This document shows positions 23,819-48,940 of a stretch of DNA of 64,000 nucleotides, in pieces; within the stretch, counting starts at the first letter, position 1; each line of letters starts with the position of its first letter. The position numbers were made by a program, and so were the translations under genes. Source of the stretch: an uncultured virus (IMG/VR IMGVR_UViG_3300030330_004305) (Duplodnaviria > Heunggongvirae > Uroviricota > Caudoviricetes); the IMG/VR virus record IMGVR_UViG_3300030330_004305. One strand, 5' to 3'. The notes beneath the pieces are model-generated. The model was not told the DNA's origin. It did not search any database and saw nothing but the letters and a program-made list of their open reading frames with translations.

Positions 23819-24049
23819 ATGAAGACTATTGAATCTGTTAATTGGGGACTTTTGCTTGAATCAGATCGTCAGGTTAGCAAAATGATCTCCAATTGGAGCA
23901 CTGGATCTCTTACGACAAGAGAGGTAATTGGTAGACTAGCACACACTCAGTTTGCTGGTGAATTTAGAAGGTTGATTCGTAACAATGGAACAACCTATGC
24001 AAGACGCTTGGCACGTAAAGCTTTGCGTTATCGCGGAACTAGTATTTAA
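23819..24049 (+). CDS. small basic protein, possibly nucleic-acid binding
   Basis: GAAAGGA RBS; Arg-rich C-terminus; AGTATAATT motif upstream. Confidence 0.65.
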   Translation: MKTIESVNWGLLLESDRQVSKMISNWSTGSLTTREVIGRLAHTQFAGEFRRLIRNNGTTYARRLARKALRYRGTSI

Positions 24050-24072
24050 CTTAATTTGTGGAGAATATGTAA

Positions 24073-24471
24073 ATGAGTGATCTTAATAAGTGGGTCGGTT
24101 CAGGTAGAGTTACTAGAGACACTGAACTCAGGTATACGCCCAATGGTACAGCAGTAGCAGATGTAGGGCTATGCTCAAATCGTCAATGGTCTAAGGATGG
24201 AGAGCGTCAAGAAGAGCCTACATTTCTAGACATTACACTCTGGGGTAAGCAAGCGGAAGCTTTGTCTGAATACCTTACAAAAGGAACTTTTGTTATGGTT
24301 GAAGGAAGATTGAGTCTTGATACTTGGAAAACAGAAGAAGGTGTCAATAGATCTAAGTTGCGTGTAGTCGCAGAAAAGGTCAACCTTGGTCCAAGGTCTA
24401 GTGGTTCTTCTGGCTCCACAAAAAGTAAAAGCAATCAGACAGAAGAAATTCAGGAAGAAGTCCCATTCTAA
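24073..24471 (+). CDS. ssb: single-stranded DNA-binding protein
   Basis: LNKWVGSGRVTRDTELRYTPNG, WGKQAE, VEGRL, acidic EEVPF tail. Confidence 0.95.
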   Translation: MSDLNKWVGSGRVTRDTELRYTPNGTAVADVGLCSNRQWSKDGERQEEPTFLDITLWGKQAEALSEYLTKGTFVMVEGRLSLDTWKTEEGVNRSKLRVVAEKVNLGPRSSGSSGSTKSKSNQTEEIQEEVPF

Positions 24472-24473
24472 TA

Positions 24474-24580
24474 GGACCGACTGGTGTCTCTCTATGATAA
24501 AGTTAGATTTTAATTCCTTTCATTACTATCTTTCATGCACTAACTCATAGAGGCTTTGGGTTCAATTCCCAATAGGTCCA
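24474..24580 (+). ncRNA. tRNA-scaffold RNA lacking a D stem, with a long anticodon-arm replacement
   Basis: GGACCGA/TAGGTCC-A acceptor, perfect T arm TTGGG-TTCAATT-CCCAA, 13-bp helix CTCTATG(ATAA)AGTTAG/CTAACTCATAGAG closing a 33-nt loop; terminator follows. Confidence 0.75.
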
Positions 24581-24587
24581 CAAAATA

Positions 24588-24629
24588 AAGGAGTCGATAA
24601 TTGTATTTTTACATTATCGGCTCTTTTTT
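24588..24629 (+). terminator. intrinsic terminator
   Basis: GGAGTCGATAAT-TGTA-TTTT-TACA-TTATCGGCTCT then T run. Confidence 0.8.
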
Positions 24630-30200: not shown

Positions 30201-30764
30201 ATGCTTGTGATAAAAATATTTATGTGTGTTATACTGGCAGACTTTATAACTGGCTTAGTACACTGGATAGAAGATACATATGGCGTACCTGACTGGCCTT
30301 TTGGGTTAGGAAAGAATGTAGTAGAACCTAATATTATTCATCATCAACATCCTAATTGGATGATAACAATGAGTAATGCAATACAAAGAAACTACATTAC
30401 AGCTATCCCAGCATCCATAGCAATTTTTATTGCTTACTATTTTTATGGATGGTCATGTTGGCCTTTTGCAACAACAATTTTAATCGCTGGTTTTCTAGGC
30501 AATGAAATTCATGGTTGGAATCATACGCCTATCTCAAAACTCAACTGGTTTATAAAATTTTTGCAAGATACTGCTATAGTACAAACTAGACATCAACATG
30601 CACTTCATCATAAAAAGCCATACAATAAATATTATTGTACAATAACAAATTTAACAAATCCAGTGCTAGAGCTTATCTATTTTTGGAGAACACTTGAATT
30701 TTTACTATTAAAAATATTTGGATTAAAAACAAAAAGATGTACGGAGGTTAGGAACGGTTATTAA
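30201..30764 (+). CDS. CarF/TMEM189(PEDS1)/FAD4-like membrane lipid desaturase
   Basis: ADFITGLVHWIEDTYG, HHQHP, NEIHGWNH, HQHALHH, YCTITNLTNPVL. Confidence 0.85.
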   Translation: MLVIKIFMCVILADFITGLVHWIEDTYGVPDWPFGLGKNVVEPNIIHHQHPNWMITMSNAIQRNYITAIPASIAIFIAYYFYGWSCWPFATTILIAGFLGNEIHGWNHTPISKLNWFIKFLQDTAIVQTRHQHALHHKKPYNKYYCTITNLTNPVLELIYFWRTLEFLLLKIFGLKTKRCTEVRNGY

Positions 30765-32091: not shown

Positions 32092-32337
32092 GCATGTATA
32101 AAGATTATTATTGATGTTGTAGGAGACTGCGGGGCAGTACCGCACACCTCCACTTGCCAAACTAAGGGGGTGAAATAGATTCGATCCACAATATGATGTA
32201 GTATATCTCATGCACTGGTTGATAGAAGGGCCAGTATAAAAATCTATCAAACTTTTAATTGCAGATGAAAATCTTGCTTTGGCAGCGTAAGCTGTCTGGG
32301 GTTTGCCAGTACCTTATTATCCAAACTGGCATTTTTT
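32092..32337 (+). ncRNA. ssrA: circularly permuted (two-piece) tmRNA
   Basis: T arm TGCGG-GGCAGTA-CCGCA and CACCTCC-A (32128-32152) precede GGGGGTG-AAATAGATTCGA (32166 onward); G3-U70 pair; pk1 ACTGG/CCAGT and TTGATAGA/TCTATCAA; tag GCA GAT GAA AAT CTT GCT TTG GCA GCG TAA = ADENLALAA* at 32261-32290; terminator hairpin 32304-32337. Confidence 0.92.
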
Positions 32338-44993: not shown

Positions 44994-45427
44994 GAATAGG
45001 AATTATATCAGGATATTTTAATCCGGTACACACAGGGCACTTGGATTATATAGAGGGTGCAAAAAGAGAATGTGATTTTTTGTACGTTATTGTAAATAAT
45101 GACGATCAGGTTAATTACAAAGGTTCTACAAAATTTATGGATGAAGAGTCTAGGGTAAGAATAGTTTCTGCATTCGGGTGTGTTGATAGGGCTATTATTT
45201 CTATAGACGATAATCCCACTGTAGTTAAAACTATATCACAAATTTACAAAATGCATCGAGATGATCCATTTATAGAAAGTTTTTCATTCATGAATGGTGG
45301 AGATAGAAAACAAGGAAACACGCCAGAATCTGATTTTTGCAAAAAAAATAATATAGATTTAATTTATAATGTTGGTGGTAATAAAACCGAGTCTTCTAGT
45401 ACATTGCTTAAAAATGTTAGAGGATAA
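44990..45427 (+). CDS. cytidylyltransferase-like (HxGH) nucleotidyltransferase
   Basis: SGYFNPVHTGH, NGGDR, KTESSS. Confidence 0.88.
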   Translation: MRIGIISGYFNPVHTGHLDYIEGAKRECDFLYVIVNNDDQVNYKGSTKFMDEESRVRIVSAFGCVDRAIISIDDNPTVVKTISQIYKMHRDDPFIESFSFMNGGDRKQGNTPESDFCKKNNIDLIYNVGGNKTESSSTLLKNVRG

Positions 45428-45431
45428 CCTT

Positions 45432-46109
45432 ATGAAATTTAGCTTTATCATATGTACAAACCTCTCGATATCTGCTAAAATGAGATTACAAGAAATTATT
45501 AAATCAATCCAAGATCAAAAAATACCCGATGACCATTATGAAATTATAATAATTGGAGGCAAAGGCACATTTAATACAAATTGTTTAAATGCCTACCATA
45601 TAGAATTTGATGAAGACATTCGTAAGGGCTGGATTACTAAGAAAAAAAATATAGCAGCTAAATCTGCACAGTATGAAAATCTTGTAATAATGCATGATTA
45701 TTTTGTGCTTGATGATGATTGGTATAGACAGTTTACGCTGTTTGGTAATGATTGGGACATTGCAATGAATGCAAGGATAATGATGGATGGAAGAAGACAA
45801 TGTACAGATTGGGCTATATACAAGCACCCCAAGTATTATAATGTGATAGGGATACCATATTGGGCAAAATCTAAGTATCAATATGTTGATGCATCATACT
45901 TCGTTGTAAAACGCAAATGGTTTTTAAACGATAGAATGTATGACGAAAATTTGGTTTGGGGTGACGCTGAAGACATCGAATGGTCTAAAAGAGTATTAAA
46001 TGATAGTGTTTCATTAGTAATGAACGAGAAGAGTATTGTTCGTCATAATAAAATCCATGACAACTGTGGTCGCTTATCTTATAAAATGGATGAGTGGTAT
46101 GGAGATTGA
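45432..46109 (+). CDS. GT2-like glycosyltransferase
   Basis: FSFII, YEIIIIG, WITKKKN, IMHDY, WGDAEDIEWS. Confidence 0.8.
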   Translation: MKFSFIICTNLSISAKMRLQEIIKSIQDQKIPDDHYEIIIIGGKGTFNTNCLNAYHIEFDEDIRKGWITKKKNIAAKSAQYENLVIMHDYFVLDDDWYRQFTLFGNDWDIAMNARIMMDGRRQCTDWAIYKHPKYYNVIGIPYWAKSKYQYVDASYFVVKRKWFLNDRMYDENLVWGDAEDIEWSKRVLNDSVSLVMNEKSIVRHNKIHDNCGRLSYKMDEWYGD

Positions 46110-46129
46110 AATTTATATTGGTGTGACCA

Positions 46130-46489
46130 ATGCAGAGAATTAAAACCTATATTATAGATTTAGACGGAACTGTTATAAAGCATCAACCGCCAGCGGAAAG
46201 ACATTTGCCTATGGAGGCTTTAAACAATAGTGTGGATTCCCTGCATACCATAGTAAAAGAGGGGCATAAAATTATTCTAATGACTGCAAGACCGCTATGT
46301 TGTTATGCTGATACTGTTGCCGGTCTGCATAGTCTTGGAATAGATGAAGTTTTTGATCAGATTATTTTTGGTGTTGGCAGCGGAGAGAGAGTTGTGGTGA
46401 ATGATTTAAAGCCAGAGTCTGACACCCCAACCGCAAAATGTGTAAACCTGAAAAGAAACAAGGGATTTAACGTTGGAGACTTAAAGTGA
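46130..46489 (+). CDS. HAD-family phosphatase (capsule-cluster type)
   Basis: IIDLDGT, LMTAR, VVNDLKP. Confidence 0.8.
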   Translation: MQRIKTYIIDLDGTVIKHQPPAERHLPMEALNNSVDSLHTIVKEGHKIILMTARPLCCYADTVAGLHSLGIDEVFDQIIFGVGSGERVVVNDLKPESDTPTAKCVNLKRNKGFNVGDLK

Positions 46490-47169
46490 AGATTTTTGGA
46501 GACGGATTTTCCGTTGACGATATTAAAAGGTATGATAAACTATTAGATGGATTTACTAGTAACCCCAGCCTAATGAAAAAGCTAGGTGTTACAAATTATT
46601 TAGAGTATTGCAAAGAGATGTTGCAGGCCACAGAGAAGCCCGTATCTTTGGAAATTTTGTCTGATGATTACGATGAGATTATTAGGGAGGCAACAGTACT
46701 TCAAGAGCTTGGCGACAATGTGTATGTAAAAGTTCCGATTACAAACTCTCTCGGACACTCAAATTTGCCTTCTATATCACACTTAGTGGAGGTTGGTGTG
46801 AATGTTAATGTAACAGCAGTGTTTTCCTGTAGGCAGATCGACGACATTGTTGAAAGTCTGCCCATAGACAAAGGGTATATAATTTCAGTATTTGCTGGTA
46901 GGATTGCGGATTCGGGGGTTGATCCGCAGTCATATATAAAACATGCTGTCGCCAGAACAGCATCATGCCAAGCCGAGGTATTATGGGCAAGCACTAGAGA
47001 GGTTCTCAATATATGCCAAGCTAATAAATGCTCATGCGATATTATTACTGTGTCATACGCACTGTATCAGAAGTATATACAGAATTATGGAAAGGATCTT
47101 GACGACTTCTCCTTAGAAACAGTGAAAATCTTTAAGAGAGATGGTGATGAAAGTGGATATTCAATCTAA
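46486..47169 (+). CDS. transaldolase-family protein
   Basis: GFTSNPSL, NVYVKVP, NVTAVF, SVFAGRIAD, LWASTRE. Confidence 0.9.
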   Translation: MKIFGDGFSVDDIKRYDKLLDGFTSNPSLMKKLGVTNYLEYCKEMLQATEKPVSLEILSDDYDEIIREATVLQELGDNVYVKVPITNSLGHSNLPSISHLVEVGVNVNVTAVFSCRQIDDIVESLPIDKGYIISVFAGRIADSGVDPQSYIKHAVARTASCQAEVLWASTREVLNICQANKCSCDIITVSYALYQKYIQNYGKDLDDFSLETVKIFKRDGDESGYSI

Positions 47170-48886
47170 AGTTACTTTGGTCTTTCCGATGGCGGGTCAG
47201 GGGTCAAGGTTTCAGTATAAATTTAAGCCATTCCTGCAATTCTGTGGAAAAACATTTATAGAAAATGCAGTTGAGCCTTTTATAAAGTATAAGAGCAAAA
47301 TAGAAAGAGTTGTTTTTATATTTACGCAGGAGCAAGAGAAAGACAACGCAGTGTCTGCGTTCTTGACGGAGACATTTGGGAATATATTTAAGGTTGATTG
47401 CGTCATACTTCCAAAACAAACTGATAATCAATACCAAACCGTATCGCAAGGTTTGCTGAATAGTAAGGTGTCTGGCGAAATCATAGTTTGTGACTGTGAC
47501 CATAGATTAAACGTGGACTGCTTTTTTAGAGGGGACTTGGTTTCAAAATCAGAGTGTGTCGTGCCGGTGTGGAAGATAGATCTGGATGAAGTAAAGCATT
47601 GGTCAGTTATAGGTCTGAATAGAAATATGCAGCCAATATCAATAGCAGAAAAATCTGTGCCCTCTGAGGGGGAGACCTATTTTGGTTGTATTGGATGTAC
47701 CTACTTTAGAAATGCATCCAGTATGCTTGACGTAGATGACGATACTACCGCAGTGTCACAAGTAATACGGAAGATGATAGAGAAACGATGCGTAAGAATA
47801 GTCGAAATATATGAGGGGTATTTCTTCGGAGACCAAGAGAAGCTAAATAATCTAGAGGAGGAACGAGAATCATTGCTACTGTCTGCTGAGAATGTCTTCG
47901 ATCTAGAAGGAGGATCTTTAGCGAAAACGAGTATTGTTAAGCTATCGGGTGGCAAGATGGTGGTTAGAAAATCTGCCAACAAGAACTTCAAGATTGATTT
48001 GGGATACACTAAATTAAAACAGCAATACAATAGAATGCGTTTTTTATATAAACTAATGCCTCAAAATGTAGCACAACCCATACATGAGTTTGAGAACGAT
48101 GAGGTTTACTTCTATGATTTGGACTACTTGGCTGGATACAAGGAGTTGCACAAATTTAAAAAAGAGGAAATATCTACTTGTCTTGATAAAGTTCTGAAAA
48201 CACTTAATGATAACTGCTACAGCGGAGTAAACAGGGTTAGTCTACCGACTGACAATAGCTGGTTAGAAAACCATCTGGAGATTAAAGTTACGCCAAAGCT
48301 TGAGCAGGTTTCAAGAATAGGGAACCCATTCAACTCTATCGTTAATGGTGATATATTCTATGTGAACGGGTACTCCTGTTATGGGTTGAGGCACTCACTT
48401 GAAATGATCAAAAAATACCACGATTTATTACGCCCAAGGTTCCTTTGTGCGGTACACGGAGATTTGACATTTTCAAATATAATGTACAATGAAGAAGATT
48501 TCTACATAATAGATTCCGATGGTGCAGATCAATTCGACAACCCCATGCTGGATTTTGGTAAGCTGTGTCAATCAATATTAGGTAGATACGAGAAGTGGTG
48601 TAACGAGGACATAGCCGTTATTGAAAACAGTTCATACGACTTTGAAGCTCCTACGATCAGGACTTATAAGGAATTAGAGAGTTTAAGTGGCTTGACTGAA
48701 TATTGGTCTGCCATACTAAACGTGTCTGACACCGAGCTTAAACCTATGGCATATTTTTACTGTGGTTTACACTTCATAAGAATGATACCGTTTAGATTAG
48801 AAGTCGGTCGTGAGCAAGCGTTGTATGCTTTAATTTTAGCTGGGTTTTATCTTTCAAAGGCATTCGATAAACTAGAAAGAGAATAA
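47141..48886 (+). CDS. sugar nucleotidyltransferase fused to APH/choline-kinase-like domain
   Basis: PMAGQGSRF..KPF and CDCD in the N-half; HGDLTFSNI, IID, DFGKL in the C-half. Confidence 0.82.
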   Translation: MVMKVDIQSKVTLVFPMAGQGSRFQYKFKPFLQFCGKTFIENAVEPFIKYKSKIERVVFIFTQEQEKDNAVSAFLTETFGNIFKVDCVILPKQTDNQYQTVSQGLLNSKVSGEIIVCDCDHRLNVDCFFRGDLVSKSECVVPVWKIDLDEVKHWSVIGLNRNMQPISIAEKSVPSEGETYFGCIGCTYFRNASSMLDVDDDTTAVSQVIRKMIEKRCVRIVEIYEGYFFGDQEKLNNLEEERESLLLSAENVFDLEGGSLAKTSIVKLSGGKMVVRKSANKNFKIDLGYTKLKQQYNRMRFLYKLMPQNVAQPIHEFENDEVYFYDLDYLAGYKELHKFKKEEISTCLDKVLKTLNDNCYSGVNRVSLPTDNSWLENHLEIKVTPKLEQVSRIGNPFNSIVNGDIFYVNGYSCYGLRHSLEMIKKYHDLLRPRFLCAVHGDLTFSNIMYNEEDFYIIDSDGADQFDNPMLDFGKLCQSILGRYEKWCNEDIAVIENSSYDFEAPTIRTYKELESLSGLTEYWSAILNVSDTELKPMAYFYCGLHFIRMIPFRLEVGREQALYALILAGFYLSKAFDKLERE

Positions 48887-48940
48887 ATAAGGTGTATATA
48901 TAAATGGTATAGTTCTTTAATTTAAAGAAAGGGGACAAGT

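Follow-up and report, generated by a model that had tools for sequence, protein, structure and literature searches.

The locus studied here raises the question of what an RNA shaped like a tRNA, but built without a D stem and with a long open loop in place of an anticodon arm, does directly behind the ssb gene of a tailed phage. The window, by which we mean the whole stretch of 64,000 nucleotides analysed, comes from an uncultured Caudoviricetes virus (IMG/VR IMGVR_UViG_3300030330_004305). A preliminary description of the window had proposed that the loop is antisense to helix 2 of tmRNA and constitutes an anti-tmRNA system, and had offered as an alternative that part of the loop resembles an anti-Shine-Dalgarno (anti-SD) sequence. 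Comparative evidence supports the idea of a tRNA scaffold and the anti-SD alternative, and does not support the anti-tmRNA headline. We tentatively favour, at a little under an even chance, a reading in which the RNA is a stable antisense RNA, released by RNase P and carried on a tRNA chassis, that masks ribosome-binding sites. The features on which the argument rests are as follows.

23819..24049, plus strand: gene for a 76-aa basic, arginine-rich protein of no known family, kept upstream of ssb across the phage group with or without the RNA
24073..24471, plus strand: ssb gene (PF00436); the RNA begins 2 nt past its stop codon
24474..24580, plus strand: tRNA-shaped non-coding RNA without a D stem, 107 nt, CCA not encoded (fold prediction and sequence)
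24474..24480, plus strand: 5′ strand of the acceptor stem, pairing with 24573-24579; A3-U70, G6-A67 mismatch
24481..24488, plus strand: 8-nt linker replacing the D arm, containing UGG, with a putative role in the tRNA elbow
24489..24553, plus strand: long stalk replacing the anticodon arm, predicted to fold as 9 bp, a 4-nt bulge and 5 bp
24507..24539, plus strand: open pyrimidine-rich loop, 33 nt with one G, carrying UCCUUUC and two CUUUCAU
24556..24572, plus strand: T arm, 5-bp stem and UUCAAUU loop
24587..24632, plus strand: intrinsic terminator hairpin, homologous to one directly 3′ of ssb in relatives that lack the RNA (L016, L019)
32092..32290, plus strand: permuted tmRNA with the tag ADENLALAA (RF04321), examined and not preferred as a partner of the loop
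47136..47158, plus strand: best loop match in the phage, at the start region of ORF 47141 (581 aa), with 18 contiguous pairs, three of them G-U; a weak candidate target

The tRNA-shaped structure of the 107-nt RNA is confirmed. Its acceptor stem forms six of seven pairs and ends in an A discriminator at 24580, its T arm forms all five, and most of the layout described earlier was found again: a position between ssb and a terminator hairpin (−19.6 kcal/mol), an acceptor stem, a perfect T arm, and a 33-nt pyrimidine-rich loop with a single G. The absence of a D stem likewise stood, with a linker that measures 8 nt rather than 9, as did the helix beneath the loop, which we count as 14 bp (9 plus 5, around the bulge) rather than 13. 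The succession of stemless D region, helix, T arm and acceptor stem also reproduces, as had been noted, the topology of the tRNA-like domain of tmRNA without its G3-U70 pair. The minimum free energy is −27.5 kcal/mol (z = −3.1), a stability equalled by none of 200 shuffles. With 221 nt of context included in the fold, probabilities are 0.96-1.0 for the pairs checked in the acceptor stem (the five outer ones) and in the T stem (three) and 0.5 for the single inner-helix pair checked, and the loop is 74% unpaired. None of the features of a decoding tRNA (D stem, 5-bp anticodon stem with 7-nt loop, tRNA model score) was found in the RNA, ARAGORN makes no call, and the sole tRNA-model signal is a 12.7-bit T-arm match in the near-identical record G002. 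A comparison with Rfam gave no family at gathering score and only an opposite-strand match (E 4.9).

The genomic setting suggests how such an RNA could be made. We found no promoter-like site on the plus strand between ssb and the RNA, which is probably cut from the ssb mRNA. Judging from known tRNA maturation, it would be co-transcribed with ssb, cut by RNase P at G1, and finished by host 3′ trimming and CCA addition; because these steps would mature the RNA, the acceptor/T-arm half would provide both processing and stability. The stalk would keep the loop open, and the loop may block 30S loading by pairing with the ribosome-binding region of a single mRNA or of a small number, which most likely belong to the host. 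The homologous terminator of L016 and L019 lies immediately behind ssb, which identifies the RNA as an inserted cassette. The stem-loop of the terminator in the window (24587-24627, unlisted by a simple terminator scan) accounts for the free energy given above, and pairing of the loop with its 5′ arm is weak (−7.7 kcal/mol). RNA contigs from three sequencing runs cover only about 23890-24078 and stop short of the RNA, an absence that is no evidence either way because contigs from ordinary libraries lose short structured RNAs. The gene for the 76-aa protein is the only part covered by all three of these contig sets.

The window belongs to a phage of 35% GC with sigma-70-type factors, RecA, DnaB and PolIII alpha, and the sequencing runs that hold it are recorded as marine. 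Its DUF1501 gene has its best GTDB relatives mostly in Planctomycetota and some in Verrucomicrobiota, and its tmRNA tag, ADENLALAA, is present in one of 75 Planctomycetota tmRNA loci; from these relatives and the tag we infer a Planctomycetota host as likely. Together with G002 (126 kb, 81% complete), which was used alongside the window, about 139 kb of an incomplete genome were scanned. The same phage has other structured RNAs. A second tRNA-shaped RNA, outside the window (G002:C1:119799-119935, equivalent to L041:19799-19935), has a 7-bp acceptor stem, a T arm and a long closed stalk, and a manA-like structured RNA (RF01745, 32.2 bits, E 4.8e-07, below gathering score) lies between tRNA-Ile and tRNA-Met at 2378-2554 on the plus strand of the window, with a counterpart 3′ of ssb in L336.

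The proposal that the loop invades helix 2 of the host tmRNA, or serves the two-piece phage tmRNA as a chaperone or regulator, starts from two observations that hold: the phage does encode a permuted tmRNA, confirmed by the RF04321 match, and a pairing of 5+6 bp with its acceptor piece exists. That pairing is worth −9.8 kcal/mol alone and is at chance level, the best phage-tmRNA tile (−15.4 kcal/mol) ranking 238th of 6388 window tiles, so that the phage tmRNA is not a preferred partner. Relatives such as L005, L016 and L004 keep the tmRNA sequence with the RNA absent. The tmRNAs of the presumed host phylum fared no better. Over 75 Planctomycetota tmRNA loci (5 from one search and 70 of 110 matches from another, including the extractions L147 and L153, which have wrong 3′ ends), the best loop duplex averaged −14.05 kcal/mol. 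Every third locus was compared with 100 shuffled loops, and at these 25 loci the real loop gave −14.2 kcal/mol against −14.7 ± 0.7 for the shuffles, 83% of which do as well as the real loop when means are compared and 71% when best cases are. The 3′ strands of helix 2, which the loop complement had been said to resemble, vary among the 75 loci and agree with it in few bases only. The anti-tmRNA reading is thus largely refuted, and we consider it highly improbable; a small probability remains because the host's own tmRNA may lie outside those tested.

The shared topology also invites the idea that the RNA mimics tmRNA with a tRNA-like domain (TLD) only and titrates SmpB, in the manner of mycobacteriophage DS6A. 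According to the available parts of two papers, DS6A-type TLD RNAs are known tmRNA inhibitors (PMC4131195; PMC11915505), and the DS6A RNA resembles ours in being phage-encoded and in combining an acceptor stem and T arm with a stemless D region. Our RNA differs in lacking G3-U70 and the tmRNA linker motifs (TTCGA in the linker and GGAC before the T stem), whereas the true TLD-only RNAs of L217, L222, L240 and L265 keep G3-U70, TTTCGAC and GGAC, and it has no RF00023 or RF04321 match. A phage SmpB gene was found in none of five records. We judge SmpB titration the least credible of the explanations named here. Related molecules occur elsewhere in the data: the four loci just named are DS6A-type TLD-only tmRNAs of other phages, L016:11700-11800 (G005, around 36134, minus strand) holds a tRNA-like RNA within the intervening segment of a relative's permuted tmRNA, and L014:6470-6535 holds a mini tRNA-like RNA of about 65 nt with G3-U70 and an encoded CCA.

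The sequence of the loop points instead to the ribosome-binding site, as the alternative in the preliminary description had suggested; the evidence in its favour is a heptamer shared with 16S rRNA and, as shown below, a recurring layout. The heptamer UCCUUUC is common to the 16S 3′ tail of Planctomycetota, where all four loci read contain CCTCCTTTC in the anti-SD tail, and its unpaired probability in the RNA is 0.99. The two copies of CUUUCAU are complementary to AUGAAAG, so that the complement of the loop reads as a translation start in two registers: in the first, a weak SD, 6 nt, AUG and five codons (−16 to +17), and in the second, GAAAGGA, 6 nt and AU, with the G of AUG unmatched. Among 20,000 dinucleotide shuffles of the loop, the GAAAGGA complement arises in 2.1%, the same with spacer and AT in 1.2%, and any 7-mer repeat in 5.3%. 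Of 31 Planctomycetota genomes, 11 have start-like sites that match the loop complement plus G, with an ATG frame of at least 100 codons at 12 of the 20 loci returned, a result that is partly built in because the search pattern contained ATG; these matches establish no more than that such a motif is usual for a start region in Planctomycetota.

Target searches speak against the antisense reading, in that no target was found in the phage, viral or host-candidate genomes searched. A wobble-tolerant 30-nt complement of the loop had no match among GTDB representatives, a 25-mer with three mismatches allowed had none in 401 Planctomycetota genomes, and further searches gave hits in one of five genomes and in one of 201 genomes of a single order, both of them G-rich and at chance level. 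Ten non-self loci in viral contigs, all within coding frames and identical at 21 of 33 positions, are chance matches. Among records of the wider class described below, five (G412 and G416-G419) contained no self-target, and four further records compared with shuffles (a set of five except G423) had none beyond the shuffles. Mean binding of the loop to the 163 start regions of the phage itself is reached by 81% of shuffles.

One site in the phage deserves separate treatment, as the loop might regulate genes of the phage itself by blocking a translation start, either that of ORF 47141 or that of gene 24694, which comes next after the RNA. No other non-self site in the window scores better than the ORF 47141 start (−28.3 kcal/mol), which also ranks first of the 163 start regions, a value that 3.3% of 150 shuffles reach, and the pairing spans SD, spacer and AUG. 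Yet 13% of 200 shuffles yield an 18-bp helix somewhere in the phage, the site doubles as the coding end of a transaldolase-like gene, gene 24694 ranks 35th of 163, and the island at 45417-48889 is missing from G002, which has an identical RNA. Regulation of the phage's own genes therefore seems very unlikely to us. The island itself is an accessory one, comprising the transaldolase-like gene and the 581-aa protein, which has no Pfam hit at 1e-5.

How widely the RNA occurs bears on whether its loop has any function. An exact search of viral contigs with the 3′-end pattern matched two near-identical contigs. Loci for comparison came from a search with SSB (7 loci) and one with the 76-aa protein (19 viral loci, and 80 of 207 metagenome loci examined, of which 2 lacked ssb and 6 ended at the slot behind it, leaving 72 usable). 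The RNA is present in three of these 72 metagenome loci with a visible ssb slot, all from one phage species, and in none of 17 other viral loci; a pattern for the scaffold only gave 60 matches, none of which has this loop outside the same species. Within the sequences searched, the RNA is confined to one phage species. Only two sequence variants of it exist in these data: strain L273 has two changes, A24497G, which turns an A-U pair of the stalk into G-U, and one at T-loop position 59, and its loop is unchanged. A24497G, which keeps the stalk pair, was also found in a second comparison. Selection is not demonstrable from as few as two changes.

In relatives, the ssb slot holds other, unrelated structured RNAs. 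That of L028 is a second tRNA-shaped RNA without a D stem, whose insert is a hairpin without an anti-SD, a further point against the antisense reading. Seven loci (L021, L024, L306, L308, L314, L317 and L324) carry, directly 3′ of ssb, a pair of long hairpins, both containing an internal loop of two-fold symmetry in which conserved flanks surround 6 variable bases, and by eye the stems appear to covary. Six others (L020, L297, L305, L312, L338 and L344) carry a multi-stem RNA in the same place, with a hairpin loop that, also by eye, looks complementary to the terminator loop and could form a loop-loop pair, and L315 and L319 carry arrays of repeated hairpins with variable inserts.

This restricted distribution is what one would expect if the element were either a cassette for processing or stability or the relic of a remodelled tRNA, its acceptor/T-arm half serving just to mark where RNase P cuts behind ssb and its loop being without function in trans. 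The start of the RNA 2 nt past the ssb stop codon, a scaffold closest to the tRNA-His of a relative (29 of 44 positions) and the lack of a transcript in the RNA-run contigs, whose libraries lose short structured RNAs, agree with it. It explains less well why the RNA stands before a terminator, as no downstream gene needs cutting off when one already follows, and why both strain changes, few as they are, keep the structure and spare the loop. A layout with the same type of loop also recurs in unrelated phages. On balance, a cassette or relic of this kind is unlikely.

That recurrence emerged from two pattern scans. The first looked for two copies of TTTCAT before a T loop, with no anti-SD required, and gave 70 loci with 48 distinct matches, of which 29 lacked a full T stem, 2 were plain tRNAs and 17 were others. 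It recovered three unrelated RNAs that combine acceptor stem, stalk, pyrimidine loop and T arm with an anti-SD that the pattern had not specified (the L466 family of five, L514 and L529), as well as L488, which has anti-AUG modules and no anti-SD. The second scan looked for TCCTTTC before a T loop and returned at least 120 rows, the first 80 loci of which comprise 21 distinct tRNA and 39 non-tRNA matches; among the matches listed, the layout of the window occurs in the families L562, L571, L563, L626, L586, L615, L583 and L637. The L562 family matches Bifidobacterium phage Bbif-1, in which the element is flanked by small genes and lies some 500 bp upstream of ssb. Two members, L535 and L262, were found without selection on the loop and have C-rich loops. 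Scans of class members against Rfam (8 and 19 loci) gave no family over the element beyond T-arm fragments. In 251 Planctomycetota genomes a search for the class gave matches in 47, and the 30 loci read are tRNAs, copies of tRNA or tmRNA ends, or chance. Beside these, L570, L572, L573 and L577 have anti-SD stretches next to bare acceptor/T-arm minihelices, and in L570 the complement of the stretch runs from a full SD through spacer and AUG into the first codons.

The stems of 13 representatives of the class (all but L408 of the 14 chosen) are wholly different in sequence, a divergence that does not amount to independent covariation because the representatives were picked for pairing, and within families the identity between copies is about 95% or higher and no useful covariation is seen. 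An anti-SD-type motif is found in 12 of the 13 and is at least 65% unpaired in 9 of those 12; in L478 and L653 it is predicted to be mostly paired. Most members of this candidate class were selected by the motif itself. Several carry the full 9-nt sequence of the 16S tail. Of 10 hand-picked families with the heptamer, 5 have a second anti-SD or anti-AUG 5-mer elsewhere in the loop, against 1.2 expected (P about 0.002, for a motif list chosen after looking). It is conceivable, if doubtful, that phages of several bacterial phyla have independently made a tRNA into a display scaffold whose loop copies the 16S 3′ tail, often with anti-start modules. Being stable, such an RNA would compete with the 30S subunit for host ribosome-binding sites, and our RNA would be one member of a hitherto undescribed class of host-takeover or anti-defence RNAs.

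The same loop motifs could, however, serve a protein rather than an mRNA. The G-poor loop with its CUUUCAU and UUCAUGC modules might bind or distract a host protein, as a decoy or tether, with the likeness to an anti-SD secondary; a defence nuclease that cuts tRNA anticodons, ribosomal protein S1, PNPase and Ro60 are examples of such proteins. The loop repeats its modules instead of offering a single long complement, with a 7-mer repeat at the shuffle frequency given above, the ssb slot of relatives holds other RNAs with repeated modules, and the searches for antisense targets ended without result. In many phage tRNA-Met genes, moreover, UUCAUGC forms the anticodon loop, which is what lends weight to a decoy, and CCUUUCA lies within tRNA-Glu anticodon arms. 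In our RNA, however, the modules are not set on a 5-bp anticodon stem, and the full 16S-tail sequence in several class members speaks against a decoy. A tether for Ro60 in particular found no counterpart. YrlA-type bacterial Y RNAs, described in the available part of PMC4201824 and in RF02553 as 80-130 nt long with a tRNA-like module and a large loop, resemble our RNA in these three respects, and its first 7 nt are one base off the vertebrate Ro60 site given in the same part of that paper (PMC4201824). Both the GNCGAAN0-1G motif and an RF02553 match are absent from the RNA, and no Ro60 (TROVE) gene was found within 4 kb in any of five records or among 88 Pfam-scanned proteins. We regard a protein decoy as unlikely while still taking it seriously, and leave only a very slight chance to all other explanations together.

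If the RNA masks ribosome-binding sites, as we favour, its nearest functional analogue would be the C4 RNA of phages P1 and P7. C4 uses single-stranded segments to act on a translation region and has a defined target in its own genome, and the CI RNA of phage P4 is a related known system. Our RNA would share with C4 its nature as a small phage RNA, release by RNase P and antisense action on a translation region; the title of a 1995 paper, as cited in PMC4919922, names the C4 precursor as an RNase P substrate (Hartmann, 1995). It differs in having no match to the Rfam C4 family in a search of all Rfam families with E values up to 10, in offering only ORF 47141 as a weak candidate target within the roughly 139 kb scanned, and in keeping a true acceptor stem and T arm while showing a generic anti-SD. 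We therefore liken it in probable mode of action to C4-type antisense RNAs, of which it is not a member. In construction it resembles the engineered tRNA scaffold for recombinant RNA, in which the anticodon arm is reportedly replaced by a cargo on a stalk; the phage RNA differs in being natural, in having also lost the D stem, and in displaying an anti-SD loop as its cargo.

Among tRNA-like phage RNAs without an assigned function, T4 RNA C (species 1) is the closest. The available parts of two papers give the function of RNA C and RNA D (species 2) as unknown (PMC3014915; PMC9697503), and both are, like ours, non-decoding, tRNA-like phage RNAs of stable-RNA size. T4 rnaC is predicted to fold with an acceptor-like stem and a T arm, but it carries two closed hairpins and lies in a tRNA cluster, whereas in our RNA, which is encoded behind ssb, a single stalk carries an open loop of 33 nt. 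A BLAST search of the RNA against named phage records gave 8 chance matches, none with E below 4, and no homology to T4 rnaC or rnaD. The available parts of PMC10690425 and PMC5737381 mention tRNA-like viral RNAs or tRNA-adjacent motifs and not this layout. The literature searched contains no description of the RNA class, although one may exist in supplements (for instance among the 10,006 candidate viral RNAs of PMC10690425) or in subscription papers.

Few phage RNAs that act in trans have a known job, and tRNA-like ones such as T4 RNA C stand without a function. If the favoured reading is true, the recurring layout of an anti-ribosome-site loop on a tRNA scaffold would give such RNAs a job that can be tested, and phages would have evolved the same scaffold trick that is used in RNA engineering. 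Genes of this layout are missed by ARAGORN and Rfam. With a member of the class in a Bifidobacterium prophage (GQ141189, near 30440-30580), the idea can be tested in a host that grows in culture.
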